From: Massalongia carnosa
Taxonomy: Eukaryota
Length of the DNA stretch: 64,000 nt
Direction of reading: 5' to 3'
Assembly (NCBI GenBank): GCA_965645245.1
Contig: OZ287084.1
Span: 310,001 to 374,000, forward strand
Part shown: positions 12,401 through 62,912 of the stretch, piece after piece
Position numbering within the stretch: the first letter of the stretch is position 1
How the letters are laid out: every line of letters begins with the position of its first letter
Notes under the pieces: model-generated
Told to the model about the DNA's origin: nothing
The model's database searches: none
The model's input: the letters and a program-made list of their open reading frames with translations, nothing else
Made by a program: the position numbers and the translations under genes

Positions 12401-12878
12401 CTCTTCTTTCTGAATGTAGGTGGCATTTTGGACTGTGATGGTATCTTGAATGAAGGTAATAAGGTCGGCAAATGCCTTTTGCTCCTTTTCGTACTTGGCC
12501 AGCTGGATTTTGTAGATGTGGGTTTGTGCCTTGTATACTTCGTAGGCTCCTGGGGTCAAAAGTTGCGGCGTCTGTTGATAAGATGAACACCAGTTTCGTT
12601 GGCGATTGAATGCTTATTGGCTTGGTAATGATTTCTGGATTCACTAGGTCTTAAATTCCGCTGTTTGTGGCCCGTGATCGGACGAAGAAAAACCAGGTGT
12701 CCCAATCGGCTGGCTTGCCTAGGACTATCTTTCGCGTGGTACTCATGTTGATTTTTGATTTGATGACTTGATGGTTATTTGATGCAAAATGATGTAAACT
12801 TACAAGGTAAGGTGCAAGTTGCAAAATGCAGGTTGGTTCTTTCTTCTAAAACGATAGATGTGCTTCCGGGCTCATAAC

Positions 12879-13016: not shown

Positions 13017-13349
13017 TTCTGGAAAGGGGGAAGGTCTAGAATATTTGCTTGTGCTTCGTTTGATATTGGGTACAAAACAGTATGACGCGTGAAGGCAAAG
13101 GAGTCGCCGAACAGACATAATAACCCTAACCCTAGATAAATCAGGCTAGCGGGAGCGGGAGTCGAACTTAGGGCTATTGCTTACAGGTCGTATGAAACTT
13201 CAGCCTTACGTCATAAGTTACATGCATCGGTATTATTAGATACCGCCTACACAAGTATGCGAAACAGAAAGCCTAGAAAGCCGAGAAAGATGTGATCAAT
13301 CCCGAAGGACCTAAGGGTCACCCCCAATTCATTCCCGTGGCTCCCATCA

Positions 13350-25367: not shown

Positions 25368-26526
25368 GATAAAGTATTGCTTTCAGCACCACCAGGAAAA
25401 GACAGCGGCGCTTTGTGCGCGGTGTCCTACACCATTCGCCACTCACACCAGGCGACGGTTAATATACCAGATGATCACCAGGTAGTAAGGAGAAGATGCG
25501 GGAATTTTGCGAGCTATCTGGGTCTTTGCGCCACTGTCGTGAGCGTTGTACTAGTCTTGGTCCTGAGGGAGTCAGCCTGGCTACTTGTGGCGCACTAGTC
25601 GGACGTGAATGACCTTGGATCTACCCAAAGTCCTAAGAAGGGAGTTTTAGGTCTTTGGTTCTCGCGAGGAAGTTTGCAAATACTCAAACCTTCAGACAAT
25701 GGAAAGTTGGGGGCAAGACGTGATTAAGCATAAGCCCACGGGTCGTCGTGAGAAGGGTGCCACTGAAGTTTGCCCTGTCTCTTCTAATAATATGGGAGGG
25801 GAAAAGATAGGTAGATAGTCGCGGAAGATGGGTCTGAGGCTTGTTAGTAACGATGCACGAAGGTAGAGGTGTACGTGCCTGGTTTTCCAGATTGCTGTAT
25901 TACGTACTCCTTACTCCGTACTCTGTACTTCGTATTTCAAAGTACTTTGTACTCATTTCCTTGGCGCCGTGGTGTTCCCCTGTCCGCTGGTCGCGGAACT
26001 CTCAAACAGGATATGACGTGTGCTCTCTCGGCGCGTCATTTCTATTCCCCGAGCAACCAATCAATTCAGATGCTGCCGGAGAAACCCCCCATTTCTGTCA
26101 CGTAGATCATACATTGTCGTCGTCACATTGTGGCTGTGAAATGAGGCTTTGAAAACCATGCGCACATCGTTCTTAGATCCACTACGGAGTAGTAAACCGT
26201 ACTACCTACGAAAAGACCCGTCAGGTCCTAACACCAAAGGCTGACTTGGTACTATCCTTATACTATATACGTAGCACTCGATTCTCAAGAAGTGATAGGC
26301 ACAGGTAGACCGTGAATAACCGGTGTGCATACTCCGATAACCACCTAGCTGCAAATGTCCTGCCAAACGAAATTCCGCACCTCCTAGTCCAACTCTTGCG
26401 ACATCTTCATTCGTCATCTCATAATCCATTGTTCATATTTCACAACACCAGCCCATGCATCGCATCCAACGAAAAGCGAAAAGCGAGACGTATTCTAATG
26501 CACGGAAAGCTACGTATAACCTGATA

Positions 26527-43790: not shown

Positions 43791-44846
43791 TTAAATCACA
43801 AAGCCTTGCCCCAAGCGTACAGAATCTCCTCCGCCATACCAAACAGTTCCTTTTCGGCATTCGAGACCCTTTTCACTACCCACTATCCACTCCCCTTCCT
43901 GGCAAGTCGGACTGTTTGGCCTTGGCCAATAGTTAACCTCGAGCCACGTGTTGATCTCATTTAGAAGCAAGATCCACTTTTTCATGTAGGTTGGATTTAA
44001 ATGATAACCATTCTCATCTCTTGAAACACCGTCTTGAGTCACGAAACGTGCAATTGTGAGATGTGCTGAAGGGACGGTGTATCGCGATGCCACTGAAACC
44101 CCGGTAGCGCTACATAAATCGTAGAGATCACGTCGGAGATGGTGATAGGTATATATATCGGCTTGGTTTCTCGACATTCCTGGCAAAACTTCATCACAGG
44201 CAGGTAACAAGCTAAGTGCAATGGCTTGATTATCGTAGCTAAGCTGTGGCATCACAAGCCGTGCGCGGTGTTTGATGGTGTAGTCCGTAATCTGAGAGAT
44301 CTTTGGCGCCATACGACGTACGAGCATTTCAATCTCAGCGCTAGTTTGAGAATGAGTAACCTCCAGCACAGTCATATGAAGACAGTTGAGCGGCATAAAC
44401 CATAGATCTAAAAAGAGATAAATTTAGTAGCATCAAAACTGGGGTATTTGGTGCCTCACTAGGACTCATTTTGAGAAGCCTATCTTGCAATACCCCAATA
44501 AGCTTGCAGATGTTTTGAGGAGGTCGGGCCCAGAATACCAGACAATTCCTTGGATCGACATAACCTGGATACTGCTTGGGATCAACAAGTTTTTGGAGAA
44601 TTGGGTCTATCCGCCAACCAGGAAAGCCGGGATCCAAGATGCTAGCAATTTGCTGTTCATTCCGCGACTGACGATGTGCTTGATAAAAATGCTGAATGAG
44701 CATCTAGCAGGCAATTAGAAAAGCTAGAGCCTTGTCAAAGGACTTACCGGATCACCCTTGCATGACTCAATCAGTGTATCGTAAGGGTTTGCAGGAGTAG
44801 CTACAGAAAGGTCAGGAATAGCAGCCATCTCTGCCATTCTCTTCAT
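43791..44846 (-). CDS. 2H-phosphoesterase (RNA ligase/cyclic nucleotide phosphodiesterase-like) family protein, 3 exons; start could be 44846, 44837 or 44828
   Basis: NPYDTLIESCKGDP|...DPRNCLVFWARPP; two HxT motifs LHMTVLE and AHLTIARF; C-terminal GTVWYGGG. Confidence 0.85.
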
Positions 44847-47259
44847 CTGGCTCTAATTATCTTTAGGACTTATATACATGTTGTGATAAAGAATTCAAGT
44901 TTTATGCATTTGTTTCAGCTGCATCATGTCGCAGCTTTACTCTGTTCACATAATCCAAAATGTAGCATACATATTCAGGCAAGGGTACATTGACGAATGA
45001 AGTCCCCGCGGGGCCGTGCCAAAGAGTTCCCGCTCAAGCTCCTATGTCGGAGCAAAAGATGTTGACTGAATGCTACATACATGTAGAGTACCTTGTCGTT
45101 ATAACCTTTCTCGTAGTGGTTGTAAAAAGCACTAAGACGGAGAACGGAGTTGTTTGCTCCGAGAGCCTCTATCGGAAACGGAGGAGCAAACTCCGTGTAA
45201 GGCGAAGCGAGCGGCATTTTCTTTTCTCCTTTTCCGTAGTGTAAACTTCTTTTCAACCTCATCCCACCCTCTATCAAGTGAACACCATTCAAACAAAAGG
45301 CCATGGACAAGAAGATTGCTGTCGCCGACAAGGATACTGACCCCGGACTTTCTAAGAAAAAACTTTTTTGGAGGCTGCGCTTAATAAACGTGCACGTATT
45401 GAGCATGATTCCATTTCCAGCAAGCAATCGTGCTTTCTGACTCTAGGCAAGTGAGGCAAATGACGATGCTGGTTTTGTACATGCCAAAAGAAACTGAGAA
45501 GGGGTCACTGCCTGTAATTCTGGTCTAAACATAACTGGCATAAGTCTCCGGAGAGCATTCGGCAAAGCCAGGATGTTCCTCGAATTTTTTCAACCAGCTG
45601 ATAGCAGCTAAAGCCTATAAAGTTGCTTACCCCAGTAGCTTTAAGCATGGAAATATAGCTGTTAGTCAGAGGCTATCGTGAAGACCGATTAGATTTTTAC
45701 AGCACCTTCTCTTAGTGCTGATGGTATCTTGGCCCGAAAAAGACTCCTCTACATCGTTCTTTGTAGATTTTCAAGAAGCTTCGGCCTGCTTTCCCCACTA
45801 ACTATCGTTGCTATGGTATTTGAAATCCCGGCAATATCTAGGTATGTGCATCTCAGACTTTATCCCCCCTGCTTTTTGCAGCACGAAGAAGGTTAGAGTG
45901 TTATTATTTATTTTATTTCGTCCTTTGAAATAGCTGAAGCTGGATCGAAGGCCAAAATCCCGAACCATGGAGATCATATGTGCAGGCATCGCTGAAGTTA
46001 GACCTAACGTGAAGGTCCTCCAAGAAGAGTCCGGCATAGCCTTTTCGTTTCTGTCCATTTGCTTCCTTTTTTCACTTAATTTATTCATAAACATGTCTTT
46101 ACTTGAGTTTGCGAGTCTGTTTTCTGTTGGTATGCTGGACTGCAAATTTTTTCTCCCTTTTCAATGATGGGGCGTTTTTCCACTTATGAAGAGTTAAGGG
46201 GAAACATCAAATAGCTGCTGTATGATATGGAAATACTGCTGTACCTAGCTGCAGTCTGGGCGCTGCTAGTATAGCTCTGCATCTATTGTTACTTTCGTGC
46301 AGTCTTCGTCTTTTGTTAGTCATGCTCAATGGTGATGGGGGACAAACAACTCTTGCTCAGGTGTGTGCGTATCAATTGATTCGCAGAGGAAGCTAATGCG
46401 TGCGTTTTTTTCCACCATCGTTATGGGTTGCGCCCTAATGGTCCTCTTTATGACACACAACTTTGAAATACAAAACCCTTTTCAAATCCTCTCCCAACCC
46501 CACTTCTTCCAACCTTTGTTACCTTCAGCTATTTTGCACAACCAGCTCTCTTACTGAGTTCTTTTTATCACCAAGCTTGCATACAGTAGCTCTATCTTGC
46601 TCTTCTCCCTAATCATCTTCTGGGGTTTAAGATACTCTAGTGAGAGGGTGTTTTGCAATTCATCAGCAACCAGCTTCATACCATCACTTTGTGGAACATT
46701 CACCTTGCTTTACCACCTGTCTTCCTCCCTACAAGCGACTCGACATAAAGTGGCAGACAGCTTCTGTTCACTAGAATCATCTTCTATTGTACTGAATACT
46801 GCTATGAGAGTATTCTGCAAACCATCAAAAAGCACCTTCACACAATCACTTCGCTATCGACTTCTCACTTCATTCCCTTCCACTGATCAAGTTTGCATTC
46901 AGTGCCTTACATCCTTTCATCATCAACTTGCTACACTCGATACTCCTGGGAAGTATTTTGCAAACTATTAACAGCTAATTTGGTACGATCACTTACCTAG
47001 CAAATCAGCCTTCTTGCCTACTTTAGTCGGCTTGACTGCACACCAAGCTTGCGCTGAGAGAGAATCAGCTTGTAATCATCCTGCTCTTCCTCTTTTGTAC
47101 TAGATTCTCCTTTAGAGCGATCGGAAAGCTATTAAATATTCGATTTCGTACGACCACTTCACTGAAATAATACTTGCCTCTATCGTTTCGTCGGATTACT
47201 CAGACAGGCTTTCGGCGTATCTTTACCATCGCTTCCCCTCTGACAGATTCTCTGGAAAG

Positions 47260-50200
47260 ATGCCCTCTAAAGCCAAGCCAGTCTCGGTAGCTGTGTCAGG
47301 CGGGGATTCACAGCCTTCTAATCGTTCATCATTAGCACCCAGTACTTTCGATCTTCCGCTACGTATCACCAGGGCCAGGGCGAGACAACTAGCAATCAAT
47401 CCTTCGGAATCATCGACATCTAAGCTTGGAGCCTCCACGGGTTCGCGTGCAGCTGAACAATTATCCTCAAAGATTTCATCCTCTACTGACGGCTCTATCA
47501 GCAATACAAAATTATTTCAACCGAATCGCCTAAAGCGTTTACGTTCACCCTCACCAGCAAAGGTTCTACCGTCTAATGATAGCTCTATTGCCAGCACAGA
47601 GTCATCTCAAGCCAATCCTTCAAAGCGTTTGCGTACAGCAGAAACCTCATCAATAAAGGGCTCTCTTTTTAATGATAATAGTATTGCCAATACAGAATCA
47701 TCTCAGCCTATTAAAGCAAAGCGCCTACGCACAACTAAAGCGCCAACAAGGATTCCACCGCCTGCTTTCGATGTCACTCCCCTTAGAGAGCCATCTGAAT
47801 CTAACAAACCAAAGCTTTTGGTTATATTTAAAGTCTCATCGACAAAACTTCTCCCTTGGAACAATAGCTCTATCGCAAATACAGAGTCATCTCAACTGGA
47901 CAAGCCAGAGCCTTCCCGCCTAATTAAACCGTCATCAAGAGTTTCAGAGCCTGAGGCCGATCCTATCCCCAATGCAGAGTCATCCGAGTTTAACAAACCA
48001 AAACGTCCACGTATAATCAAACCGTCATCAAGGATTCCACCACCTGCTTCCGACTTTCTCTCCAACACCGGGTTAGCTGAAACTAATAAACCGAAGCGCG
48101 CACGCGCTGCTATATCCTCGGCATCAAAGCCTCCACCCAAACGTCCGCGTATAACTGCACCACCATCATCAAAACCTCCACCGAAACGTCCACGTAAAAC
48201 TACACCATTATCAACAAAGCCTCCGCCACCTAATGTTTGCTCTATCGTTAATGGAGATAACAACAGTGAGAATGAAGAAGGTGCAGATGGCGATGATGAG
48301 GAAGAGAATGGTGCAGTAGGTAACATATCCATGAAAAGACAACTTTCGCGAACAGATCCGCCCTTGAGCGATCTCACAGAGATATTCGAGGATATTGTTA
48401 AAAAGGCATTATCTTTGGGCCTTGACCAAGTGCTCAAGAGAAATGTAACAATCAAAGTTGCGACAATGTGCTCCGGGACCGAGAGTCCTCTCCTTGCTCT
48501 TATCGCATTTCGTCGTGGTAAGCATACCCTTGAATTGAGACTTTCTCAATATTAATATCGAGTAGCATTGAAAAAACTCGCCAACATTGATTTTAACTTC
48601 GATCATCTATTCAGCGCGGAGATTGAGCCTTACAAACAGTCCTATATTGAGAGAAATTTTGGTTCCAAAATAATTTTCAGAGACATCAGAGAACTTACAC
48701 ACGGCGATAGAGCGTATGCAAATCCTACACTCTGCAATCTTTGTTGTAGCTAATAGTACTAGGTTCAATGCTTATGGACAGCTTGTGGATATTCCAGGTG
48801 GCGTCGATTTTCTGATCGCTGGCTTTTCGTGCGTCGACTTTTCTAGGCTGAATTCTCGTGGCAAAAATCTAAGTGACCCTGGTGAGTCTGGAGATACCTT
48901 TCGCGCCATTGTTCATTACATGGTTAAATATCGCCCTGCGATCGTAATATTAGAGAATGTGCAGGGCGCGCCATGGGATATCATAAAGGCAATCATTGAG
49001 AACGACCGAACTTATCTCAAAAATTATTTCAATAAGCTCCACGTTGATCCGTCATGGGCATACGTATGGGATGAAGACGATAACGCCTACGCAGCCAACT
49101 TTCTTAGAGTCGATACCAAAGACTACTATATCCCTCAAACTCGCTCCCGCGGTTACATGGTTTGTATTGATAGCAAAAAAGATTCTGATGTGAGCCAAAA
49201 GGTCGAGGAGTGGGGCTCGCTCATGGCTAAATTGCGACGACGGGCGAGCAGCTCTGTCGAAGCATTTTTACTTCATGAGGAAGATCCTAGACTGCACCGA
49301 GCAAGAGATCAATTAGCCAGGCGTGGCCGCGAGATGCGCCAAACCGAATGGGTACTTTGCGAAGGACGAAACCAGGGATATCGGGACGAAAAGCAACTAG
49401 GCCCAGAGCGACCACTGACACGCTGGGTCAATGGGGGCTCCTCAAAGGCACCCGATTATTGGTGGTTGGAGTGGTCTGGGGTTCAAGTTGAGCGAGTTTG
49501 GGAGACTATGGAGATATGCTTCTTGAGAAACGCACTTGGTGGATTTGATCCCCTATACAAACCGTAAGTACATGTCTAAACATGAAATCTAAATGCCGAC
49601 TAACCTGTCATAGCCGAGTTTGGGATTTGTCTCAAAACATTGACCGCTTTGTTGATGGTGCCCCGCCTGGGATCGCCTCATGTTTGACCCCAGCAGGTAT
49701 ATCATTTCTAACCATTCGAGGTGGTCCTCTTCTCGGTTTAGAAGCACTTTCGTTACAAGGACTGCCAATAGACGAGCTGTTGTTGTCGAGAGAGACTGAA
49801 AAGGAACTTTTAGGCCTTGCTGGCAACGCAATGACTTCCACAGTTGTAGGAGCCTCTATTCTAGCTGCATTAATTGTGGGACGTACAGCATTACAGCTGG
49901 AGAATAGAGAGTTTTCTCACATCTCGAGAGAAGAGGTTTCTAAGGTAAAAGAGATGACAGAAGAAGCGCTTGGCTCCAGCAAAGCTTTACAACTAATGGC
50001 CGAGGAGAATGCATCAATAAAAGTGCTTCATGCAACAGCGTTGGCAAGTGCATGCCTTTGCCATTGCGAAGGACAGACAACAACAACCCGAAACCAGGTT
50101 TACAGGTGCCTAGATTGCCACCATACAGCATGCGAGAAATGTAAAGGAGTGCCTGAGCACTCCTATGGCACTGCGGACGAGTTGCCAATTCAATCTCGTG

Positions 50201-53200
50201 TTCATCCTTCTAATTTTGTTAAGCAGATTAAGGCAAATCTACCCATGAGATTGGTCCTTGTAGGTCTAAATATCGCAACATTCAAGCTTGCTAGGACAAA
50301 AGTACAGAAAAAGCTAAATGAGAATGGTTGGAGCCTTTATATCCCAGCTATCACACCAGCTCTAGAAGAGGAACTGCGCTTTCATAGAGCAACGCGAGGT
50401 ATCAAATGGATTGTAACCTATGATGCAACACATTCTATCTTGCAACTTGTATTTTCCACAGATCAGATATGTTGGCAGTTATATGCGAAGCCAGAACGAA
50501 CACTACCTGTTAATAGTCCACTTCGGGTCCTATTAAGGCAGCCGATTGCGCGCATGCAGGTCCAAGGTAATGAGTTACTCTCCGGCAACTGGAAAGTCAG
50601 CATCCCCATCGACTGGAAAGTTGAATTGGATATACGTGGTGCGGGTGAGCAAGTTAAATGCTGGGAAGCAAGCCTGGGTATATTTGATCCAAAAGTAGCT
50701 GACAAAAAAGTGTGGTCTACCTTACACATAAGCAAGAAACTTGGTCCAGCTCGGGGGTCAGCAGACGATAAGTCAATTGATAAAATTGCTGGCGAGTACC
50801 AGTTTCTGCCTAAGTGTGGTACGGCATCTGGAAGCTTGCACAAGCGTGTTAATTCGAAATCGAGTAGAGCGCTTGAGGTGTTCCTTTTCCTTGACCCAGG
50901 ACGGACCAGCCTTCCGCATGAAGATGGATTCGTGTTCTCCCGAGACAACCATCGACTGAAATATGAGGAAGTTCGGGATACAATCGCCTCAATGAACTTA
51001 GCTTGGCGACCCACAGATGTTTTCCCACAGCCCCCGGATGTCGATTCACAGCTCACAGACGTGCCGTTTTGCCAATTTGCTATGGAAGAGGTTGAGTGCG
51101 ATGCTAGGCTACAGCCTTTTAATCAAGACGTACCTTTTTACAAAGTACCTCTGGGGGATATTAGTGAGCTTGTGTCTCAAGTCTTTTGGAACTCGACCAG
51201 GGCTAGCCATACTTCCAGTTGTAACTCAGCCATCTTTACCGTATTATCCTGTGAGGTACCCTTGAAGACTCTTGAAAACACCGATTGGACACAAGGCGCA
51301 TGGTTCGAAGTGGACAAAAAGAATCTTCGGCGAACGTTTGCCGGATTTAACTGGCTTCTTGAAAGGGCGCGAAACCTCCAGAATTTTTCAAGCGAATGGC
51401 GACCACTAGAAATGCCTGTCAATATCGAACGATGTCAGACTTGTGCCCCCAAGCGACCCGCAGTCAGATGGACATTTTCAACTGGTAGAGCACCCAAGGC
51501 TATACCTTTCGACGACCCAAAGCAGGCAGGAACTTTCGAGCGCGCCATAAAGGCCAGGACAGCTCCATTCGTGACACATACCAGGATCGATGATCAACAG
51601 CGCGGTTGCATCAAAGTTGGTCTAAATGTAGTTTCTTTGGCTCATCGAGCAATGAATAAGCTTCCATCTACTGAGTATCTTCGTTTATCTTGGCGTTTTG
51701 ACGCTCAATATGAGTGGCCGGCAAAGATTGAATTCGATACCTTTACATTAAAGAACAACAACGACGAGGAGGAGTTGGTCCATAAGTTTGTGGCAAAGAT
51801 TCGCCATCCAGATGGTAGTTTCGAAACTCCCACGACAACAAAACTCCGCCCAGAGCAGGCGAGGTCACTAAGGTGGATGGTGAACCAAGAGTCCGGCAAG
51901 ATCGCCCCCTTCATCGAGCAGGAGATTGAGGAGACTACCTTGGCCGAGCTTGGTTGGCGAGCGGAGGCTCGCGCCGAAACACCCACCAAGGCTCGTGGAG
52001 GCGTGCTTTCAGATGATGTTGGGTTCGGGAAAACGCTGACCATCTTGGCTCTAATCGACATTCGCATGGACGATGCGAAATATGTAAAAGACCGCCAGTC
52101 ACATGAGGATACTGCATCCGAACTCATTTCGCTCCATGCAACGCTCATTATAGTTCCAAAGACGCTTTTGCGGCAATGGAGCCGGCAGATTGAGAAGTTC
52201 TTGGGATCCAAATATAAAGTTCTAGAAATCTGGGATATGCTATCGTGGAACACCGTTACACTCAAGCAGTTCAAGAGTGCAGATATCATACTTGTCGCTT
52301 GGCCGGTATTTAGTAGCCCAATCATGGCATCCAAAATTGCCCTCTTTGCAGCATTGCCCGAGGGACCAGCAATAAGCCATGGGAGAGCTTTCAAAACTTG
52401 GTTAAACCAGGCCATCCAACGTATTCAACAAAACACAAAAATATTTCTGAACTCGACAGATTTGGAAAGCTTTTACAATAATCTCGATAAGTCGATTGCC
52501 GACATGGAAGCTGATGACGAGCTGTATCGCTCAGTGCCCACAAAGCGCTTCAGAGGAGCAGCGTATACTGAACAGACTAAGAAAGCGTCTAAAGCGTCAA
52601 CCAGTAAGGCAGCAGCGAAGACCACTAAACCCCAAGCAAAGCGCGCCTCTACTGTGTTCAAACTGACGAAAAACGGCTCCCACGATCAGATGAAGGGCCC
52701 TCCTTTACAAATGTTTCGTTACAATAGAATTGTCATAGATGAGTATACATACGTAAAGGAGCAAGACATGACTATTGTTCAGTCGTTGAAGGCCAATTAT
52801 CGCTGGGTGCTATCTGGAACTCCAAGGTTAGGTGATTTCACGGATTTGCAACTCCTAGCGAGCTTTCTGAAGGTGAATCTTGGTGTCGACAGTGACGCTG
52901 CAACACTTCAGTCACGTCAACAAAGGAAATTTCGGCAAGAGAGAACGAGTGAGTCACCATCTTTTCACTTTCTTTTCACATTTTTCACACTCTTCCCCTC
53001 TCTTCACCCTCTTCGCCCACTTCACCTTCTTCAACCTCCTCACCCTCTCCCTCCTTCCTTCTTCCTCTTTCTTTCCTCCACCTTCCTTTTTCTTTATACT
53101 ATATATACTTTTTTTTTTTATATATATACTAATTTTAATAGCTGGCGAGGAGTTTGACTCCTTCGGCCAGTCGTTCTCGCCCGCCTGGCACCAAGAGCGC

Positions 53201-55084
53201 CACGGGCATGCCCAGGTCTTTCTCGACCACTTCGCGAGGAAGGTAAGCATACTACATTCACTTTTGCTTCAGAGGCATGGCTAACAATGCGATAGAACGT
53301 CGCCCAAGTTGGCGAGATTCCAATAGTTGAGTCCGTATATCCCATCACGCTATCGACGATGGAGCGGATCAGCTACTTGGAACTCGCGCAACAGGTAGGC
53401 TCGCAAGATGTGCGCCAAGTCCGGGGTGGCAAATCAAGAAGCGACGGTGATCGGGTGCGCCGTATCAATGAAGTGCTTCGGTCAAGCTCCTCTTCGGAGG
53501 AGGCACTCATTAAATGCGGCGCATTCTTCACGGTCAAGTCGCTAGCCACCTCGGAGGATCCGACTCTAACTCCCCTCGAATATCTCATTCGAGAGCGGGA
53601 GGTACAAGAGCAGGACTTGGTGAAGGAAATCACCACACATCTGCGGCATGCCGAGTGGCTCTACCGCCAATGTGGGAACCCGGAGTCTGAGTACTCGAGA
53701 TGGCAGTCGCACGTCAACGAAGGTTGCGTGCTCGACCCCGACACAAGGGGTCGGCTACTTGGACTGATCTCGAGGGCTCAGGAGGGTTACCACGAGAGCC
53801 ACGAGGGCGAGTTCTACCGAGAACCGCGAAGTGTCGCCCAAGCCCGAGAAGACAAGGCAAGAATGCGGGCTTGGGAAAAGGACCAGAAGGAGGCCAAGAA
53901 GGGGAAGAAGGGGAAGAAAGTACCAGCCAAGAAGACCAAGCGGTCGGAGAAGGCCAAGGCTGGGACTGACGAGGACGACGCATCTGATGGGACCTCCGAG
54001 AGCATAAGCTCAAAGGAGTCCCAGAATGATGTCGACGCCCTCGAGCAGCCTCTGCCGCCTTTCTTCGACCCAAGGCCAGACAGAATCCCTTGCGCAAATA
54101 GAGAAGAAAAGCTGAAGGCGCTCCGTAGGCTGACGGGTCATCTCAGACGCCTAGGGAGCGACCTAAGCTTGCGCAAGGGATCTCTCCGGTTCTTGGAGAG
54201 TATCAAGGCCACCATAGATTGGCAGGCTGGTACGGATGGACCGTTGAGGTGTGCGGGCTGCAACACCACCAACGATCCTAATCTCACCTTCATCCTCGGC
54301 CTCTGTGGGCATATCGCCTGCTCAGATTGTCTGCGCAGGCGCCTCCGGGGGGAAACATGCGTCGCGGCCGGGTGCGACTCCGCGGCCGAAGGCCACCACA
54401 CACACTGTGTGGCGGAGTTTGCCGACCAAGGGCAGCCGGATGTTAAATTCGGCTCCAAAACCGACGCGGTCCTTCAATGGATCATGAATACCCCAGAGGA
54501 GGACCAAGTCCTCCTCTTCGTCCAGTTCGAGGACCTCATGGACCAGATCACCACCGCTTTGCATGCTCTTGGCATAAAGTTCCATGCCATCCGGAACAAC
54601 AAGAGCATGGAAGCGGCGGAGAACCTGGATCAGTTCCAGGAGGAGACAAGAGCTGGACGGCGGAGGAAAGTCATCCTCCTCAACCCCTCCAACGAGTCGG
54701 CCGCAGGGGCGTAAGTCATGCCCACTTTTCCAGTATCTCAAGATTTCTTTGCTAACCCTTTGGACTTCTAGCAACTTGACCAACGCCAACCACGTAATGT
54801 TCGTGGCTCCGCTCCTCACCTCGTCGCTTGCCGACTGGGTCGCCGCAATAACTCAGTGCATTGGGCGGGCGCGACGATACGGTCAGAAAAAGATCGTATT
54901 TGTCTACCACTTCCTCGTCCTCGACACGATCGATGTCGATATTTTCCAAGACAGGACGGGGAAGCGCCTAGTGGAGACAAGCGCCGGCGAATGGGAGATG
55001 CTTGCCGCGGATCAACTCTCGGACGATCAGAAGAGAGTGGACCGCGGCACTGGCTTTACGAAGCAGCATCCATCCGCCGGTTAA
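47260..55084 (+). CDS. DNMT5: DNMT5-type C5-cytosine DNA methyltransferase fused to SNF2 ATPase and RING finger; introns 48518-48565, 48714-48762, 49564-49613, 52949-53141, 53243-53295, 54711-54771
   Basis: MTase motifs VATMCSGTESP (I), IAGFSCVDFS (IV, SC), ILENV (VI), PQTRSRGY (VIII), AGNAM (X); SNF2 motifs LRPEQARSLRWM, GGVLSDDVGFGKT, RIVIDEY, WVLSGTP; RING CAGC...CGHIACSDC...CVAAGC; helicase-C AAGANLTNANHV, QCIGRARRYGQ; frames join across all six introns. Confidence 0.93.
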
Positions 55085-55663
55085 GACTTGTTAGTGAGGA
55101 GGGAGCTTGGGCAGCGATGGTGGTTGGCGGCGAATGAGGAGGTCGCAGGCATTCTAACCGTGTGCATCGGGGACATTTGAGAGGTAGGCATTCTTGAGCC
55201 GGGGCTCGCTTTTTTTTATAAAAAAAAAAGTGGAATAAATTGACTAACGAAGGAAATTTTTCTAGCTTGGACTGTGGCGGAACGTTTTCCAGAGTTTACT
55301 CTAGAGGCGGATTTTTAAGAAAGAAAAATCAGAGGAGTTTTTTCAGATCAGACATCAGGAGATTTCCATTTGAACCTCGGAAGGGTTTTTCAGATCGAGC
55401 ATCGAGAAGGCATTTGCAGCCATCTAAGACGGATTTTAAAGCCTACTATAAGAAGAGTAGTATCTTTATGATATCAAAGGACTTCTTGGCATGAACATTG
55501 GGGAAGTACATTCCAAACTAGTTACCAAGAAGCATTTTCCACACATCAAAGATAGACCTCCGAGACAGCACTCTCCAGAGTGAACACAAGGAAAAATTTT
55601 CAGATATTGGAAGGGGATTTCCAAGATTGCCATCCGACGCACATTTCTTAGATTGAACACCAC

Positions 55664-55976
55664 GGCGGAAGTTTCGGCACTGAACACCACAAGACACTTC
55701 TCTATATAGACATCGGAAGCGCGATCAGGGTCAGCGTTTTCTTTCTAACTTTCGTGACGAGGTTTCCACCACCTGATACCCCAGATCGCGCCAAAATTAT
55801 ACGTTCTTCCTTCGGCAGAAATTTCGGGACTGAAAACCACAAGATACTTATCTACATAGATATCAGAAGCGTGATCAAGGCAGCATTTTCTTTCTTACTT
55901 TCGCGGCGAGGTTTCCACGTTCATGGCTACATTAATACCCCAGATCTCGCCACAATTTATGTTCTTCCTTCGGCAA
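55664..55976. repeat. Diverged tandem duplication, ~150-160-bp unit x2
   Basis: ACCACAAGA.ACTT.TCTA.ATAGA.ATC.GAAGCG.GATCA.GG...CGAGGTTTCCAC...ATACCCCAGATC.CGCCA.AATT...GTTCTTCCTTCGGCA occurs twice. Confidence 0.85.
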
Positions 55977-56279
55977 TTTTGTCTAGGCTCTTCTCTCCAT
56001 ACACACCGGCTCGTATTTCGCATATTACATTGCAAAGGAGGAAGACTCGTTTCTTCGGTTGACGGCGTCAATTATCGGGTCTTGTTATAGTTTGATCGGA
56101 AAATTTATACTGGATCTATGTGGAAAGCCAAGCGCCAGTTCAGTTCAATTCAGAGCTGGTTTTGTGACTAAAGTTCGCTAAGGAGGATTTTAATCAACCT
56201 CAAGCTAATGCCGATTTCACCTTCACTCTCCACCGATAAAAAAAATCTCACTTTTTACGACTTCACCCCTCCTTCTTTC

Positions 56280-56860
56280 TCTTCTTCTAATCCAATTTCC
56301 AACCCCCCAGCTTTCCGAAATACTCGCCATCATCCAGCCAGCTCATTCGAGATATATCCCTCATTCTATTCTTCCCAGACAACGTTAGAGATGGAATTAT
56401 CAGAAATCCAAGTTTGGGCGTGAGTGCAAGGGTTAATATGTATGTATGAATGAATTCTATCAATGGCGAAAATGTTGACGAATCCGCAAAAGCAAAGAAT
56501 CCGGGAAAATGCAACGTCGACTAAATTGCAAGGCAAACAAACGCGAAATCCTTTCGAACCCCCCCCTCTCTCTCTCTATTCCTTCTAATCCATTTCGCAA
56601 CCTCTCAGCATTTCGAGACAATCACTATCATTCGATCGGCTTCCTCAAGAGAACTCTCTCGCTTCATTCTTTCCAACGACGTCAGCGCTAGAGACGGGAT
56701 TATTCGGGAATATGAGTTTGGGCATAAGTGCAAGGATCGATCGGGTATGTTTGTATGAAACCTCATCGACAGCGAGCGAAATTGCTAGCTAACCCGCAAA
56801 AGCAAAGAACCCGGGAAAAAGCACCATGAGCCAACTTTGTAAGGCAAACAAACGCGAAAA
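56280..56860. repeat. Diverged tandem duplication, ~295-bp unit x2
   Basis: CTTCTAATCCA..., AGTTTGGGC.T.AGTGCAAGG, CCGCAAAAGCAAAGAA.CCGGGAAAA and AAGGCAAACAAACGCGAAA occur in both copies. Confidence 0.85.
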
Positions 56861-57408
56861 TAAGATTCCTGATGAGAAAGAGCGGGGGGGGGGGGCCAAG
56901 GGGATGAGAAAACAACCACCGCGTGGCACGAGCGATCGGAAAGGGAGGAGCAATGAGAGGGAATGAGTAGTGAGGAGCGTTTACGTGGACGTGGAGGAGT
57001 AGATATGAATGATTTTCTTTGGAGTTTGGTAGTGTAGGAGAAAGGCAACTAAGAAATGGGCGAGTAGCAAGAGACCTAGTAGAAAAGTCTGGTCTGGTCT
57101 GGCGCGATGTGATACAATTGGCTGTATATAATATCCCAAGTTCCCAAGCTATGGAAAGATAGAGAGAATGGCTGGCTATTTAGATGCATATCCTCGTCGT
57201 CATCTTACAACCTTTTCAAACACTTTCCTGCTAGCCGTAACAGCCAGACCAAGTGCCCCAACTTCCTTTTACCACTCCCGAGTTTAGTCTACCAATCTGC
57301 TACACGTCGCTGCGTTTTCCGGTCTTGGACCTATTAGCTATGCATCGAAATAGGTAAATACATCAAGGGCCGAACATCCTTTCCGGTGCTCCCCAACCCC
57401 TACTTGTT

Positions 57409-58006
57409 TGCCTTGCCTTGCCTTGTCTTGCCTTGTCTTGCCTACCTGCATACTGCCCACACCTTCCCGCCCCACTGCGTATAGCCCTTCCCTTCCAAGT
57501 TTTCCTTTCTTCTCCTTCTTTTCTCTCCTAACTGGGGAAACCCCCCCACCCTCGAAATCTCTTCGTGACGGGGAGGTGGTTGTGGTGGTGCGGCAATGGC
57601 ATGCCGGATGGAGGATTTATGGGGGTGGTGATGTACAGGCCCTGCGTGTCTGGGGAAGGAAGTTTCGTTTGGTTTTGTTGGGGATTGTTTTTGAGGGGGG
57701 GAGGGCTTTTTTGGTTTTGGTAGGGTGGATTAGAGTGGAGCAGATGGGGGAGAGAAGCGCTTTATATTAAATCCGTTGAGGGGTTTCCGAAGATTCTTTC
57801 GGGGCCCCGAAGGAGGCGAGGGAAGGTATGGGTGTATGGATGGATGGGAGGATGGATGGGAGGACAGGGAATGGGATGGACGGACGGATGAACAAATAGC
57901 GGCTCGTGAACGGATGAGTGAGCGGCAAGTAGATAGGTAGGTGGCTGGTTGACTGACTGACTGACTGACTGACTGCCTGGCTGAGCGACTGAGCGAGCGA
58001 GCGAGT
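57409..58006. repeat. Simple-repeat-rich tract: (TTGCC/TTGTC)n, (GGAT)n, (GACT)n, (GAGC)n
   Basis: Direct reading at 57409-57441, 57835-57890 and 57950-58006. Confidence 0.85.
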
Positions 58007-59558
58007 AAGTAAAAAACTGCTTCTTCTGTGTATATAGATCCGGTAGTTTACATATAAACCCAAGTGGTCGATCGGATAGCGGAACGAGCGCGTGAAGCGG
58101 GATTCTGGCCGGCGGGCGCGAGGGAGAAAGAAAGAGGAGCATGATGATGGTGGTGCTGGTGACGGCGTGCTGTATGTAGCAGTAGTAATAATAGTAAGTG
58201 AAGATATGTGGTGGTGGTAACGGAGTGGGACTTTTCGGGAGAGGGTTTGGGGGGGGGATGATTTTGCAGTGGGGAATGGCTGGCTACCTAGGAGGAACTG
58301 AGAAGGATATTTGATGGAGGATAGAGGGTCAGTACGTAGACTGAGGATATAGAAATCTTGATATGATGCCGATAGCTTTTATATATGAACCGTAAAGAGC
58401 AGGTATAATACATAAACCAAAGTCCTGAGCAAACCCACCTTGTATCTGATCATCATGAAACCCGCCATGCATTGAAGGGCAGGAAACCCCTAATATCTGT
58501 AGGTTGCAAGGTAGCCTAGGTCCTTATGGAGGCAAGTAAGCCGGCTAGCAACTAATCCTTATTTGTAAGAATTCGAAAATAGATATAAACGGCAGGCAAA
58601 ACTTATAGCATGAGTATCAGTTAAACTATGCCCATCCAGAGTGACTTCCAACCAACGTTTTATGTCAGTCATTTCGCTTTTTGCGTTACTTTTTCGTAGC
58701 TCCTGTCTCGGGATAAGCCAGGTAGAGCTACGGAAACAGATAGATACTTGACATAAAAGGTATAGGGGTCGGCATTAGGTCTTCTATCTGGTAAGGATAG
58801 TAGACATTCTTCTTTCCCAGTTTAGGGTTCGCACCTGGATATCCATTTGCGTGCTAAAAATTTGTAGATTCAATGGTTTCCGTTTGCCAAAGTAAACCAC
58901 AATGAGCTAGTAAAAAGTGAACCAAGGAGAAGAAAAAGGGGGTTAGAAGAGATCCGTATTACAAGCCCTAGTTCTGCAATGTAACAAGCAAATTTGAATG
59001 GAAATTCCATGAAAGAAGTGTTCCCTGAAGAGAGCCTTAATCACTTCCAAGCTTTGAAGGGTTGAAATAAGTTCATCACAAAACAAGATCCAACGCATAT
59101 ATGGTTCGGCAACTATTGCCGAAAACCTAATAATGAATATACATCATCAACAAACTAGCAGACGCAGGTCAGAGTAATACCGCGATCAAGGGCACCGTAG
59201 GATGTAGTACAAATATGTCCAGCGCGTTATAGATATGCTGCTGCTTCGTAGGGCGACGCTAGCCATTTCACGATCACTGATATACTCGCTGTTCATTGAT
59301 CCTGCATCATGAAGTAAACAGCCCTCGCCTTTATCAAAATCAACCACTAGAACGTTACTTCGAAATCCAAAGTAGACTGGTGCTGTGGGTATACATCAGT
59401 TCTGACAGTTGTACCCGTTATATAGACTGAAAGAGATTGTTCTAAGCTCGAGACAAACTTTCACTTAGCTTTTTTGGTGGTACCTGATTCCTGGTTTTTT
59501 GTTTCAAGACTTTATGCCTAAGCGTTTAAGATAGGAAGAATTCAAAGTCCTTGAAAGC

Positions 59559-62233
59559 ATGGATCAAAGCAGCGACACAAGTCCACTCTCTAGTGCTCCA
59601 ACGTCTTCTCCTGATTTAGGAAAGTCGCCATCTGATATGATGAACACGCAAAACAGATCCTCTAGAGTGACCCGGTCTCAGGCTGGTAGCAATCAAACAC
59701 AAAACAGCCCTTCCGGAAAAACCAAATCGCAAGCTGATGGGGATCAAGCACAAGATACCCTTTCTAAAAGGACCAAAGCTCAACCTAAGGGCAAACAGGC
59801 ACAGAAAAATGAAAGGTCTGTAAAACTGAAAACCCGTACAGGGTCGCAACGCTAACTTTTGAGAATCATTATAGCGATGATAAAAGATCAACTATTGTTG
59901 GAGGTGCGAGTAAATCGCCCCCAAAAAAGGTTGGTAGCAATCACTCTAGAACTGTATATGGAAACTCAAACTTATTGGATGTTTAAGACAGCAAAAAACC
60001 CTGCAAAAGGAGGTCGCCGTTCTGCTGTAGGACCGAAATCTGATGTGAACACCAGAAATTCTAATGCTCAAGCTGCGACATTGGATCACTCGCAGATTAC
60101 ACTAGCCACGAAACTGAAGCCTAAATCCAGGAACGTGAAATCAAACATGACGGACGGGCTTCAGTCATTGAACACAGAACTCATTGCAGGAAGCTCGCTC
60201 AAAATCAACGGTCCGGACGTTGGCCAGGTGTCCAACACTAAGCGGTCTTCAAGGAAATTAGAACTCACCAATCCAGAGTCACCGGTCCAAGCTCGAGCTA
60301 AGAGCACGCAAATATCAGTCTCTTTAGCTCACAACACTGACTCGGTTCAAGACGAAAGCAACGGTACTGGTAAGACGTTTAGACGCAGACCCACGAGAGC
60401 AGCCAGAGCTAGTAAATCTAACCCTCCAGAAAATCTTATTGTTTCTAATTTGAAAGACAATTTCAACCGGAGTGATACTCATAATCTCAACATGAGCAAA
60501 GTAGTAGCTGATAGCTTCACACCGGTTGAACCAAAAAACTCCTCACCTACAAACCAGACCACTCGGCGCCGAAAATTGAAGAGAGAGGGTGAAGCTGCTT
60601 GGAAGATATGGAGAGCACGGAAAGGTAGGTGCAAGACTTTTCCATAGTTGCATTATCTGGTTTCTGGTTTTGCTAATGTCTGACCGTGATTGAGTAGAGC
60701 GGATATTGGAGTTTTTCAAACAGCCCGTAAATACCGACAGCTCCATGGTCGTTCCTGATGGATTCAATTTATGTGAGGAAGAAGGGGTGTATGTATTCTC
60801 CCCAACGGCGGCAGCACTAAGCAACTTTGAAACATTTCTTGAAAAAGCCGAAGAGGTAGCTGGGCGGAGGAGAGGCGTGGTTAAAGTTATCCTACCAAGA
60901 GAATGGTAAGTCATAATTTCCATTCTACAGGCACTGTAATCAACGAGAGGTGTGTTCTAATGAATCACCCAGGACATTGGTGTATCCACCTCCACATCTT
61001 GTCGTAGCATCGACCTCGACAACAACAACAACAACAACGCTAGATAATAGCCCTTCGACCTGGATTCGGCCGTATAACACGAAGCTCAATCTCCATGTGC
61101 CGCTTTCGCATAATCTGCCAATGTACAAAGTCAGCATGCTCGGTGCGATCAACACTCCTGTAGCTGAATGGCAGCAAGAACTAGAAAGAGATCGAGAGTC
61201 AGTGATTAGAGGATGGGCTTTAGATCAACCTTTTCCCGATGATGTGTACAATGCCGTCATGTATTCACTTCCGGAAAAGCAAATGATCGCCCGGAGTCAA
61301 GCATTAAGCGAGGGAGAATATTATGCTGAAGATATTGAAGGTTAGTGATTGGAGCGATTTCAAAGTTCTGGGGTCGCCGCTAATATGATTGCTACATTAG
61401 CAACTGATATCCTTCGAAGGGCCATGCAATGTGGAGGACCGGATCTGCGACGTGTTCAACCAACCAATTTCCAAGGGCGATATCGGGCAGACGATAAGAC
61501 GCACTCATTCTTTCAAGTCTCTGGGGCTCAAGGGTCGCCATTTGGTCTTCGAACATCAAATGGAGCAGCGTATATCCTCAATTATCTATACCGCGGTGCT
61601 CCCAAAAAGTGGACGATTTTTGAACCAAGCGAAACTCCAAAGTTGGAAGAATTCATTTATGAAGACGTGGAGCTTGCAGGAGGGCGGTTAGAGAAACTGC
61701 GGTCGGGCCACAAACCGCCCACGCACCCTCCACGATGTGATCAGTTCTTGGCGCACGAGCAGTTTTATCTGCCGCAGGAGACGTTATTGGCCAAACATCT
61801 GAAGTACTCAGAAACGATCCAGTATCAAGGGGAGATCATCATCATCTTCCCTCTTGCATATTACCAAGGGTATAGCACCGGACCTAGTCTGGCCGAGAGC
61901 AGGAGATACGTCAATCGTCGCTCTAAAGATATGGGATATAGCGACATATGGCAATGGTGCAGTGAGCGGTGCACGGGGACCGAAGCCAAATACGCCGAGG
62001 ATCATCCAATGTCCGAAGAACCTGGAGATGAGGAAACGGCCTCAAATAATCCTCAAACGGGGCGTATTTCCGTGTCTTCACTTCTTAATGAGGCGGGCCA
62101 CGAAAGCACCTCTTCAGCAGCGCCAATACCCGGCCAGAGTTCTGTCCACACCAAGATGAGTGTTGCCAGCCTCCTTATACACGCAGAGGCTGTGACGGAG
62201 ACAAGGAATCAGAGCGGCGACGGGGACGCCTAG
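59559..62233 (+). CDS. KDM4/JMJD2-like JmjN+JmjC domain protein, predicted catalytically inactive; multi-exon (5' exon boundaries uncertain)
   Basis: JmjN GVYVFSPTAAALSNFETFLEKAE...GVVKVILPREW; JmjC YYAEDIE|, LNYLYRGAPKKW, CDQFLAH, QYQGEIIIIFPLAYYQGYSTGPSLAES; introns near 60626-60696, 60906-60972 and 61321+ (GTTAGT..CTAAT..TAG, ending 61400). Confidence 0.88.
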
Positions 62234-62912
62234 ATGAGATTCGACTGAGCTCGGGGCAATCTGTATTTACCCTAATATGTATCGTGCTCCGGTGCCGTTC
62301 TGGAAGTACTGGTGCATTAAGATGCATGGAGATGAGAAAGGCCGGATCTTGTGCGACTCTTTGTCTTAGTTCATCAGTCGGATTCCATTCGTTCTTTACT
62401 CACTGTGGGTGGGTAGTAGTTATGTACCGTTGTTCGCTCGACGCCTGAACTTTCCCTTGCCCGCATATGTTGTTTTAGTTCTCTTAAAGTGCGTTCAGTT
62501 AAGAAAGCTAGATTATGCCATATTTCCATTCAGTAAAGCATTACTCTGTACACTTAGATACAGTGTGAGAAAAAACCCAGACTTGTGGACGCCAGAATGT
62601 ACCTACCTCTCCTGCTAGAACCCCAACCATTCAAACCACTCCCATTCTAAGGCAGCGGATAGGCAGCACAGATTTAGCTGTCAAAGAGAATCCCTTAACC
62701 TTTGACTGAGCATATCTTCTCTTATTGAAGGTTCGACTCGCTAACAGAGTACACAATACACAATACATCATAAGCTACGCGGTATGATACAGACAAGCGC
62801 CATGGAACTTTCTTGTTCTCTTAGCGAGCAAACGTCATCGCAATTGACTCACAAACGAAATAGGTAGATAGGGGATGTAGTTAGGATATATTTTTCTGGT
62901 ATCAATACTCAT

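Follow-up and report, generated by a model that had tools for sequence, protein, structure and literature searches.

A DNMT5 gene and, downstream of it in the same orientation, a lineage-specific, KDM4-related JmjN/JmjC gene constitute a conserved gene pair, and we conclude that the adjacency of the two genes is not due to chance. The pair was analyzed in a 64,000-nucleotide stretch of Massalongia carnosa DNA, here called the window (Table 1). In our view there is about an even chance that it represents a tandem pair inherited vertically in lichen-forming and allied ascomycetes, with both proteins acting in the same heterochromatin/5mC pathway.

Table 1. Features of the DNMT5 and JmjC genes and of their spacer in the window.
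Feature	Position	Strand	Remarks
DNMT5 gene	47260..55084	+	intact; ATG at 47260; about 2500 aa predicted, several short introns
DNMT5 N-terminal low-complexity Ser/Pro/Lys-rich region, without chromodomain	47260..48330	+	no Pfam family
DNMT5 C5-methyltransferase core	48334..49564	+	Pfam DNA_methylase E 3.8e-11; alignments to 7R76
DNMT5 SNF2-related ATPase domain, best Pfam stretch	51856..52209	+	SNF2-rel_dom E 9.9e-23; inside ORF 49549-53157
DNMT5 RING finger, weak match	54250..54366	+	zf-RING_5 E 1.8e-4, 21.8 bits, below cut-off 27.9
DNMT5 helicase C-terminal lobe and stop codon, two exons	54502..55084	+	reading frames; tblastn to 8 loci
4.5-kb spacer, no detectable gene	55085..59558	.	no Pfam, Rfam or tRNA match
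JmjN/JmjC pseudo-demethylase gene, 785 aa	59559..62233	+	exons 59559-59815, 59875-59929, 59988-60624, 60698-60905, 60973-61340, 61401-62233 (with stop)
N-terminal Ser/Lys/Thr-rich region, presumably disordered	59559..60624	+	composition; no Pfam
JmjN-like segment	60793..60891	+	Pfam JmjN E 0.003, 17.8 bits, below cut-off 26 (weak)
JmjC domain, Pfam stretch	61523..61900	+	Pfam JmjC E 9.3e-13, 49.1 bits, cut-off 24
KDM4-type structural zinc site, kept	61736..61972	+	Cys 61736-61738, His 61754-61756, Cys 61958-61960, Cys 61970-61972

In the window DNMT5 a SNF2-type ATPase is fused C-terminal to the methyltransferase, as supported by Pfam, a Walker A motif (GFGKT), the reading frames of the helicase C-terminal lobe and alignment to PDB 7R76. 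The latter entry is the C. neoformans DNMT5, deposited under the title 'DNA repair protein Rad8'. It was matched by a 1202-aa ORF (49549-53157) with E 3.6e-167 over 1119 residues and by the methyltransferase ORF with E 2.5e-53. Motif I (ATMCSGTESP, about 48460-48489), motif IV (AGFSCVDFS, catalytic Cys codon 48830-48832) and motif VI (ENV, as ILENV in the alignments to 7R76 and 4 loci) were identified. The methyltransferase motifs are kept in 5 out of 5 aligned loci, and the catalytic motifs are intact beside live and dead JmjC partners alike. The gene is colinear with the Lobaria immixta DNMT5 in 6 segments covering residues 111-2229 of 2241. An earlier note on this DNA had described an intact DNMT5 with methyltransferase, SNF2 and RING domains. 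The first two were borne out; the RING region aligns to the Lobaria protein, and its Pfam match is weak.

The same note had seen no recognisable chromodomain at the DNMT5 N-terminus, and neither a Pfam Chromo match nor a PDB alignment was found in the first ~400 aa, the part ahead of the methyltransferase lead-in. This region contains a 45-nt tandem repeat (48122-48224) and is poorly conserved among the 18 DNMT5 N-termini compared. The part of 10.1101/149385 available to us lists an N-terminal chromodomain as a feature of the DNMT5 family. Among the 120 listed DNMT5 homologues, however, PF00385 occurred in only 2, both from chytrids, and in no ascomycete protein, with or without a JmjC neighbour. 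Thus, the chromodomain is not a general DNMT5 feature, and its absence is not peculiar to the window gene.

As previously noted for the window, the roughly 4.5 kb between the two genes hold no convincing gene: 6 ORFs searched in the spacer matched no Pfam family, and neither an Rfam match nor a tRNA was found in it. The spacer contains two local tandem duplications (55663-55975 and 56266-56859, by self-blastn) as well as short simple repeats near 57400-58000, and showed no similarity to the other loci compared. In 4 other lineages the gap measures only about 0.6-1.3 kb. A comparison of two strains revealed six 1-nt indels in the spacer and only one 3-nt indel in each coding region. Of 57 differences, 18 fell into 59061-62900, a density similar to that of the spacer, which weighs against the reading preferred below.

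The JmjC gene was modeled with six exons and five GT-AG introns of 58-73 nt, and its frame closes. Splice sites were predicted by reading the sequence; the start codon and the first two introns are without homology support. The protein aligned without interruption to a Xylona heveae homologue (residues 297-695, E 7e-66). Alignment of 12 full-length relatives revealed a conserved helix-like W..W..K motif at the end of the N-terminal region, just ahead of JmjN. The JmjN exon of the window is 43-63% identical to that of 20 loci, and the orthologous exon in locus L014 exceeds the Pfam cut-off of 26 with 27.2 bits. Pfam found no PHD, Tudor, ARID, zinc-finger or zf-4CXXC_R1 domain in the window protein.

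The description of the gene as a same-strand JmjN/JmjC gene whose product lacks its metal ligands was confirmed, with the JmjN match being weak. In the alignment to KDM4C the three iron ligands H, E and H are replaced by R (61550-61552), S (61556-61558) and Y (61862-61864), and therefore the window protein cannot be classified as an active demethylase. The residues of the zinc site, which we take to correspond to the KDM4A ligands C234/H240/C306/C308, are kept. Two tyrosines of the methyl-lysine pocket, presumably Y175 and Y177 in KDM4A numbering (motif PYLYF), are replaced by F and Q, with Q at the Y177 equivalent. The lysine that binds 2-oxoglutarate and the tryptophan are retained.

In the phylogenetic tree the DNMT5-linked JmjC family forms a clade of 61 rows (SH-aLRT 85) comprising the window protein and proteins from Sarea, Xylona, Pycnora, Candelariales and Acarosporales. 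Nested in it is a dead clade of 49 rows including the window (SH-aLRT 98), none of which has all three iron ligands. The early-branching members, in contrast, kept the iron ligands H, E and H, the K and W residues and the two pocket tyrosines in 12 out of 12 cases, which shows that the partner of DNMT5 started out as a complete Fe/2-oxoglutarate lysine demethylase. Because these early-branching partners retain every catalytic residue, the linkage to DNMT5 is older than the loss of catalysis.

What became of the JmjC protein after this loss can be judged from the pattern of conservation. In 47 dead relatives the zinc site is almost invariant (C 47, H 46, C 46, C 46), and dN/dS amounts to 0.10 for L019 versus L020 (dS 0.86) and to 0.26 for L012 versus L005. 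Since the zinc site is kept and the gene evolves under purifying selection, these comparisons show that the protein of the window clade is a pseudoenzyme and not the product of a pseudogene. It is highly improbable that the gene is decaying or is an inconsequential recent arrival carried in by a TE, although such an origin would fit the loss of catalytic residues, the fast evolution (median root-to-tip distance 2.05 in dead versus 0.69 in live members) and the 4.5-kb spacer with local duplications upstream. The frame is open over six exons with canonical introns, 1 of 282 amino acids differs between the two strains, and the sole indel between them in the JmjC gene, of 3 nt, preserves the frame. 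The recent or TE-borne gene considered in the earlier note is also contradicted by orthologues in dozens of 50%-identity clusters and by the lack of repeat or TE similarity. That note had proposed that the dead JmjC could act as a methyl-lysine reader that targets or limits DNMT5. Spelled out, the domain would bind H3K9me3/H3K36me3 in its former active site, bring DNMT5 in or keep it away and substitute for the chromodomain. The conserved fold and zinc site and the lysine and tryptophan still present in the window protein are compatible with such a reader, as is the use of H3K9me by Cryptococcus DNMT5 via its chromodomain and Swi6, according to the accessible part of 10.1101/149385. We nevertheless consider a methyl-lysine reader improbable. 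The Y175 and Y177 equivalents are lost in 47 out of 47 dead relatives and present in 12 out of 12 live members, the E190 equivalent is kept in 5 of the 47 versus all 12, and the S288/T289/N290 positions vary in the dead relatives but are invariant in the live members. Cofactor positions have drifted as well. Moreover, the Pfam chromodomain is missing from the listed ascomycete DNMT5s irrespective of a JmjC neighbour, and a dead reader cannot explain the pair in its ancestral state, since linkage predates inactivation and the early partners are catalytically intact.

The linkage itself was followed in metagenomes and in named genomes. The metagenome scan yielded 30 loci. The JmjC family accounts for 23 of them, and 12 of these 23 extend for 9 kb or more upstream from the JmjC match. 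In 8 of the 12 (L001, L004, L010, L011, L012, L014, L015 and L017, representing 5 distinct sequences) the next gene upstream is DNMT5, in the same orientation. Among the listed matches, five named genomes contained both genes, and in all five the pair lies on contigs of equal length and carries consecutive locus tags or tags one apart: Sarea (M1819_000950/_000951), Candelina mexicana (M1836_000292/_000291), Pycnora (M1827_004575/_004574), Pleopsidium (M1830_004631/_004632) and, one apart, Candelaria (M1812_000003/_000001). The conserved gene module suspected in the earlier note is thus found as adjacent genes in related lineages, with 5 further metagenome lineages and 5 named genomes in support. 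The DNMT5 and JmjC trees show broadly the same grouping of lineages.

This conservation might also be passive, resulting from slow rearrangement since a common ancestor. The two genes would then have no function in common, and the JmjC pseudoenzyme would serve an unrelated process. We regard this as a serious possibility with a probability somewhat below even. Some extended synteny surrounds the pair, so slow rearrangement could explain part of the linkage: the window and L019 have four further upstream ORFs in common in the same order, and five dead-clade lineages (L012, L005, L014, L017 and L020) have several downstream genes in common. Two sister lineages (L019; L020-L022) carry a dead JmjC gene without DNMT5 within 8-10 kb upstream, and it is still strongly constrained, with the dN/dS of 0.10 mentioned above. 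Hence, JmjC function needs no neighbouring DNMT5. Conversely, most listed fungi have DNMT5 without this JmjC family; in a search limited by its word index, no family member was found in nine relatives that do have DNMT5, Peltula and Chaenotheca among them, or in any listed Eurotiomycetes, Pezizomycetes or basidiomycetes. A segment comparison also revealed no DNMT5 region conserved specifically in JmjC-linked species. Purely passive retention is, however, argued against by adjacency and orientation being kept in 9 distinct lineages of several fungal classes whose proteins are 29-65% identical. In these comparisons the gene downstream of the pair was exchanged at least twice: L001/L010 have a P450 gene there, whereas L012/L014/L017 have F6, a DEAH helicase and GCN1. 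The window contains neither set. Furthermore, the JmjC family is small and lineage-specific, and each of the five testable named members adjoins DNMT5.

Since many lichen-type fungi that are only distantly related carry the two genes side by side, their products may work together, and a shared function is plausible. In the preferred reading, that of a vertically inherited pair acting in one pathway, DNMT5 is the ATP-dependent maintenance cytosine methyltransferase, and the JmjC partner would set or limit the position of the methylation it maintains. The ancestral partner would remove H3K9/K36 methylation. One large lecanoromycete clade including the window lost the iron ligands and the substrate pocket and kept the zinc site that defines the fold, and there the protein may act as a non-catalytic scaffold or competitor by analogy with Epe1 or JARID2, without methyl-lysine reading in the former active site. 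The tandem linkage may serve co-regulation. More speculatively, the pair may be an ancient, selectively kept two-gene epigenetic cassette. Its JmjC partner would bind or regulate DNMT5, couple histone-lysine methylation to 5mC maintenance and replace the chromodomain/HP1 route of Cryptococcus, turning into an allosteric or targeting pseudoenzyme subunit after catalysis was lost in most Lecanoromycetes. This extended version appears rather doubtful to us.

No maintenance DNA methyltransferase is known to be more specific than DNMT5. A JmjC gene adjoining it across several fungal classes provides a concrete, testable candidate partner in ascomycetes whose DNMT5 is without a chromodomain. In addition, the family represents a natural experiment in pseudoenzyme evolution, with active members and a large constrained dead clade in the same genomic context and two lineages that dropped DNMT5 from the locus and kept the dead JmjC gene. 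Our literature search turned up neither a study of DNMT5 in lichen fungi nor a description of the DNMT5-JmjC gene pair.

Among the known systems, DNMT5 of Cryptococcus neoformans (PDB 7R76/7R77/7R78/7T02) agrees with the window gene in its domain order, methyltransferase, RING and SNF2 ATPase, the RING match of the window gene being weak. Motifs I, IV and VI and Walker A are present in both, whereas the window gene has a low-complexity region of ~400 aa in place of the chromodomain. The partners reported in the part of 10.1101/149385 at hand are Swi6 and Uhrf1, with no JmjC protein among them. The best solved relatives of the JmjC protein are the KDM4/JMJD2 proteins (human KDM4A-D, yeast Rph1), with KDM4A-D as top PDB matches (window exon E 1.7e-9, a live family member E 2.8e-22, family profile E 5.5e-29). 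JmjN (with a weak match in the window), JmjC and the Cys-His-Cys-Cys zinc site are common to KDM4 and the window family; the iron ligands are H/E/H in KDM4 and R/S/Y in the window member. In the tree the window family forms a lineage-specific clade of its own, apart from the canonical PHD-bearing KDM4-type protein of fungi (Chlorociboria match only E 9e-19). JARID2, a dead JmjN/JmjC cofactor of PRC2, is a scaffold beside a chromatin writer. Its chains were matched by the family profile at E 8e-10, much weaker than KDM4, and its ARID and zinc-finger domains were not found by Pfam in the window protein.

S. pombe Epe1 presumably has no JmjN, is not of the KDM4 type and has no known link to a DNA methyltransferase; to our knowledge S. 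pombe has no 5mC. Its likeness to the window JmjC protein is meant as a functional analogy and not as a claim of homology. As far as the available part of PMC7192584 goes, Epe1 is a JmjC protein that affects heterochromatin, with a non-enzymatic anti-silencing function and no demonstrable demethylase activity. According to the sections of PMC10538959 that we could draw on, loss of the JmjC proteins DMM-1 of Neurospora or IBM1 of Arabidopsis alters DNA-methylation borders. Both contain a diverged zf-4CXXC_R1 domain, are without JmjN and work with DIM-2/CMT3-type systems; no methyltransferase gene is described there as their neighbour. The zf-4CXXC_R1 domain was not found in the window protein, and limiting DNA methylation is the role that, by analogy with DMM-1 and IBM1, the ancestral active JmjC partner of DNMT5 may have had.

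All parts of the observation in the earlier note were confirmed: the window carries an intact DNMT5 gene, followed on the same strand by a spacer of about 4.5 kb with no detectable gene and then a gene for a JmjC protein without its metal ligands. A 1202-aa DNMT5 frame (49549-53157) matched C. neoformans DNMT5 7R76, a structure deposited under the name 'DNA repair protein Rad8', with E 3.6e-167, and the methyltransferase frame matched it with E 2.5e-53. The protein carries motifs I, IV (Ser-Cys) and VI, a Walker A motif and the SNF2 domain, and its RING gave a weak Pfam match. It is called intact because it is colinear with the DNMT5 of Lobaria immixta over residues 111-2229 of 2241, which is the nearest named DNMT5 among the matches listed (46-48% identity). 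The reported lack of a chromodomain also held, as none was found by Pfam and PDB matches in the first ~400, low-complexity residues. This absence is not peculiar to the window. Pfam PF00385 occurred in only 2 of the 120 DNMT5 homologues listed, both from chytrids, and the N-termini are unconserved in a comparison among homologues. The window is fungal, with genes for transcription factors of the Zn2Cys6 class and an element of Copia type, and stems from a lichen-forming ascomycete. Of the words sampled from it, four sequencing runs contain 83-100% and a fifth 60%, one of the five being labelled a lichen metagenome; no RNA run was among the nine listed.

Features of the window and locus tags of the gene pair in annotated species
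Feature	Position or locus tags	Strand	Remarks
Copia-type retroelement	8010-12613	-	RVT_2, Pol beta-barrel and gag-pre-integrase frames
Homocysteine S-methyltransferase	13296-14525	+	ordinary neighbour
NIPA magnesium transporter	23091-25382	-	ordinary neighbour
Zn2Cys6 transcription factor	34821-36674	+	ordinary neighbour
DNMT5 gene	47260 (ATG) to 55084 (stop)	+	reading frames and homology
Spacer between DNMT5 and JmjC genes	55085-59558		4.5 kb
Spacer tandem duplication	55663-55975		unit ~150 nt, 80% identical
Spacer tandem duplication	56266-56859		unit ~300 nt, 70% identical
JmjC gene exon 1	59559-59815	+	splice sites read from sequence
JmjC gene exon 2	59875-59929	+	splice sites read from sequence
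JmjC gene exon 3	59988-60624	+	splice sites read from sequence
JmjC gene exon 4	60698-60905	+	splice sites read from sequence
JmjC gene exon 5	60973-61340	+	splice sites read from sequence
JmjC gene exon 6	61401-62233	+	splice sites read from sequence
Sarea resinae pair	DNMT5 M1819_000950; JmjC M1819_000951		locus tags
Candelina mexicana pair	DNMT5 M1836_000292; JmjC M1836_000291		locus tags
Pycnora praestabilis pair	DNMT5 M1827_004575; JmjC M1827_004574		locus tags
Pleopsidium flavum pair	DNMT5 M1830_004631; JmjC M1830_004632		locus tags
Candelaria pacifica pair	DNMT5 M1812_000003; JmjC M1812_000001		locus tags

The JmjC gene model has five introns, all GT-AG and 58-73 nt long, and its frame closes to give a 785-aa protein. 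Its alignment with full-length relatives (Xylona heveae, E 7e-66) runs uninterrupted from residue 297 to 695 and crosses three exon junctions; introns 1 and 2 and the start codon were read from the sequence alone. The JmjC domain scored 49.1 bits in Pfam, above threshold. The JmjN segment reached 17.8 bits against a cut-off of 26, which the orthologue in metagenome locus L014 exceeds, and shares 43-63% of its residues with the JmjN exons of 20 related loci. In an alignment with KDM4C, the iron-ligand positions His, Glu and His are occupied by R, S and Y.

No Pfam family in any of six frames, no Rfam family and no tRNA were found in the spacer, nor any similarity to the other metagenome loci. 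Its tandem duplications resembled nothing else in the window or loci. A second strain (run X4) showed 57 differences from the window in total, of which 40 were itemized; there were six 1-nt indels in the spacer, and the sole indels in the two coding regions were one of 3 nt each. These lie in a 45-nt repeat encoding part of the DNMT5 N-terminus (48122-48224) and in a run of threonine (ACA) codons of the JmjC gene (61000-61040). The JmjC proteins of the two strains differ by one residue in 282. Neither the genes nor the spacer showed a clear signal in RIP and CpG indices, and nor did the Copia element, whose CpG observed/expected ratio of ~0.74 is slightly under the window average.

An exhaustive search with the last JmjC exon yielded 701 proteins (E <=0.001), and the ligands were surveyed in 149 of the best 150. 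P0005, the one left out, comes from a whitefly; its 1604 aa contain 15 near-identical JmjC pieces, and it may be an artefact of assembly or annotation. The full H/E/K/H set was present in 73 of the 149 but in only five of the best-scoring 58 (P0008, P0011, P0012, P0019, P0032), the others lacking at least one ligand or being fragments. In P0073 (1390 aa) a protein kinase domain is joined to the JmjC domain. The named close relatives of the window protein are all from lichen fungi. Named dead members come from Xylographa pallens, Lecanora helva, Letrouitia and Schaereria dolodes, and intact ones from Xylona heveae, Pycnora praestabilis, Candelina mexicana, Candelina submexicana, Candelaria pacifica, Sarea resinae, Pleopsidium flavum and Acarospora. 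When the Xylona protein was used in a word-indexed search, 16 further members besides the query came up at E <=1e-80; the scores then dropped to E 9e-19, for a KDM4-type protein of the canonical form, which has PHD domains. This marks the family as small, with a sharp boundary. The protein atlas matched with generic JmjC clusters only. The solved structures nearest to the family profile are KDM4A-D (E 5.5e-29), whereas KDM5 (E 1e-15) and JARID2 (E 8e-10) matched more weakly.

In a quick IQ-TREE run on 79 rows, from which 12 fragmentary rows without the first two ligand columns had been dropped, the JmjC family came out as a 61-row clade (SH-aLRT 85), with the intact proteins as its early-branching grade. 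The dead ones make up a single clade of 49 rows (SH-aLRT 98), none with all three ligands; the window protein lies inside the latter, closest to the homologues P0002-P0004. No substitution is common to all 49, as Schaereria has retained the first His and the Glu survives in a few members, which suggests that catalytic constraint was probably relaxed once, at the base of the clade, and that different residues were hit later. Relative to live members, the dead ones evolve at about three times the rate (median root-to-tip 2.05 vs 0.69). They keep the KDM4-type zinc ligands in 47, 46, 46 and 46 of 47 rows, with 22 columns at least 90% conserved. The dN/dS of the JmjC exon was 0.10 between L019 and L020 (225 codons, dS 0.86) and 0.26 between L012 and L005; these values rest on closer pairs, synonymous sites being saturated in deeper ones (the window vs any locus; L014 vs L017). 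Judged by these comparisons, the dead members are not decaying.

The conservation of the neighbourhood, proposed as a synteny check in the earlier note, was found in nine distinct lineages, with close relatives merged (JmjC 29-65% and DNMT5 31-64% identical). A metagenome scan with the family alignment gave 30 loci, 23 in the family and seven with ordinary JmjC genes of other organisms. All 30 were searched with the window DNMT5 frames, and shared ORFs were mapped. Linkage was counted in the 12 family loci whose sequence extends 9 kb or more upstream of the JmjC match, the remaining eleven ending too early. DNMT5 lay directly upstream on the same strand in 8 of the 12 (L001, L010/L011, L004/L012, L014/L015, L017; five distinct sequences) and was missing upstream in four (L019; L020/L021/L022; two distinct sister lineages). 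The intergenic gap is ~0.6-1.3 kb in L001, L010, L014 and L017, and ~4.5 kb in the window and L012. Among the matches listed, all five annotated species with both genes have them under neighbouring tags, on contigs equally long within each pair. Xylona, Acarospora, Candelina submexicana, Xylographa, Schaereria, Lecanora helva and Letrouitia stand outside this count, having no DNMT5 among the 120 listed. In Candelaria pacifica one annotated gene separates M1812_000001 and M1812_000003. None of the 120 listed DNMT5s has a JmjC domain, hence no fused form was seen. The descriptive result as such is considered secure.

In L019, the four upstream ORFs of the window are followed 2 kb on by the JmjC gene, and DNMT5 is cleanly absent in between, which looks like a locus-level loss. 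L019 6372-8349 corresponds to window 44703-59559. In L020 (1-7000), as in L021 and L022, the dead JmjC gene is immediately preceded by a 7-kb block of 21-29% GC without an ORF of at least 130 aa; this block, at the place taken by DNMT5 in other lineages, may be an AT-rich insertion or a region degraded in a RIP-like way. A search of L019-L022 for DNMT5 remnants found none, although the threshold was relaxed to E 1 and closer queries were used. Since the low dN/dS between L019 and L020 was obtained from loci without an adjoining DNMT5, the dead protein is kept without DNMT5 beside it. Conversely, an index-limited search found no JmjC family member for a DNMT5 tree clade of nine taxa (Peltula, Watsoniomyces, Thelocarpon, Caeruleum, Trizodia, Piccolia, Sarcosagium, Chaenotheca and Sclerophora), nor for the listed Eurotiomycetes, Pezizomycetes and basidiomycetes with DNMT5. 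By that search, DNMT5 does not generally depend on this partner.

Whether the two genes are functionally coupled is, in our estimate, evenly balanced. That they adjoin merely through a stable local gene order is a possible but less favored reading. The four ORFs common in order to the window and L019, together with a downstream block common to five dead-clade lineages (L012, L005, L014, L017, L020: an unnamed gene, then DEAH helicase and GCN1), indicate that gene order is fairly stable within the subclass. However, the pair genes are the sole ORFs which the window shares with L001, L010, L012, L014 and L017. The downstream neighbour in L001/L010 is a P450 gene, and the last 1.8 kb of the window contain neither this nor the DEAH helicase/GCN1 set; the downstream context was therefore replaced, and outlived by the pair, at least twice. 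The comparison covers the gene order around these loci only, which is its main weakness.

The catalytic motifs of DNMT5 are kept beside live and dead partners alike, and no 40-column stretch was conserved specifically in the JmjC-linked DNMT5s (n=5) as compared with unlinked ones (n=9). In the DNMT5 tree, sequences from lineages whose JmjC partner is dead group in a single clade (support 99) and sit on long branches (0.6-1.2); DNMT5s beside live partners have shorter ones. The long branches could reflect joint relaxation or merely a fast lineage.

Catalytic and pocket positions were mapped onto KDM4A by alignment and are given in KDM4A numbering. Every residue that could be mapped is kept in all 12 early-branching members: the three iron ligands, the Lys and Trp for 2-oxoglutarate and both tyrosines of the PYxY pocket motif. 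The ancestral module thus combined DNMT5 with a presumably active KDM4-type demethylase. The earlier note had proposed the dead JmjC domain as a methyl-lysine reader; that it still reads through its former pocket we now consider very unlikely. Neither pocket tyrosine is present in any of 47 dead-clade rows (the window has F and Q), the Glu ligand remains in 5 and the Lys in 13, and the positions matching S288/T289/N290 vary. This loss of the pocket argues against methyl-lysine reading at that site and points towards a role as scaffold, decoy or regulator.

Taken singly, the components belong to known kinds, whether DNMT5, KDM4-type demethylases or JmjC proteins that are catalytically dead. In the openly accessible papers searched, neither DNMT5 in lichen fungi nor this lineage-specific JmjC family, its large constrained pseudoenzyme clade or its conserved pairing with DNMT5 was found. 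The role of the dead protein may be similar in kind to that of the JmjC protein Epe1 (PMC7192584). A putative link of the JmjC partner to 5mC is drawn from the conserved adjacency, from Cryptococcus, where DNMT5 is driven by H3K9 methylation (10.1101/149385), and from IBM1 and DMM-1, JmjC proteins which shape DNA-methylation borders (PMC10538959).
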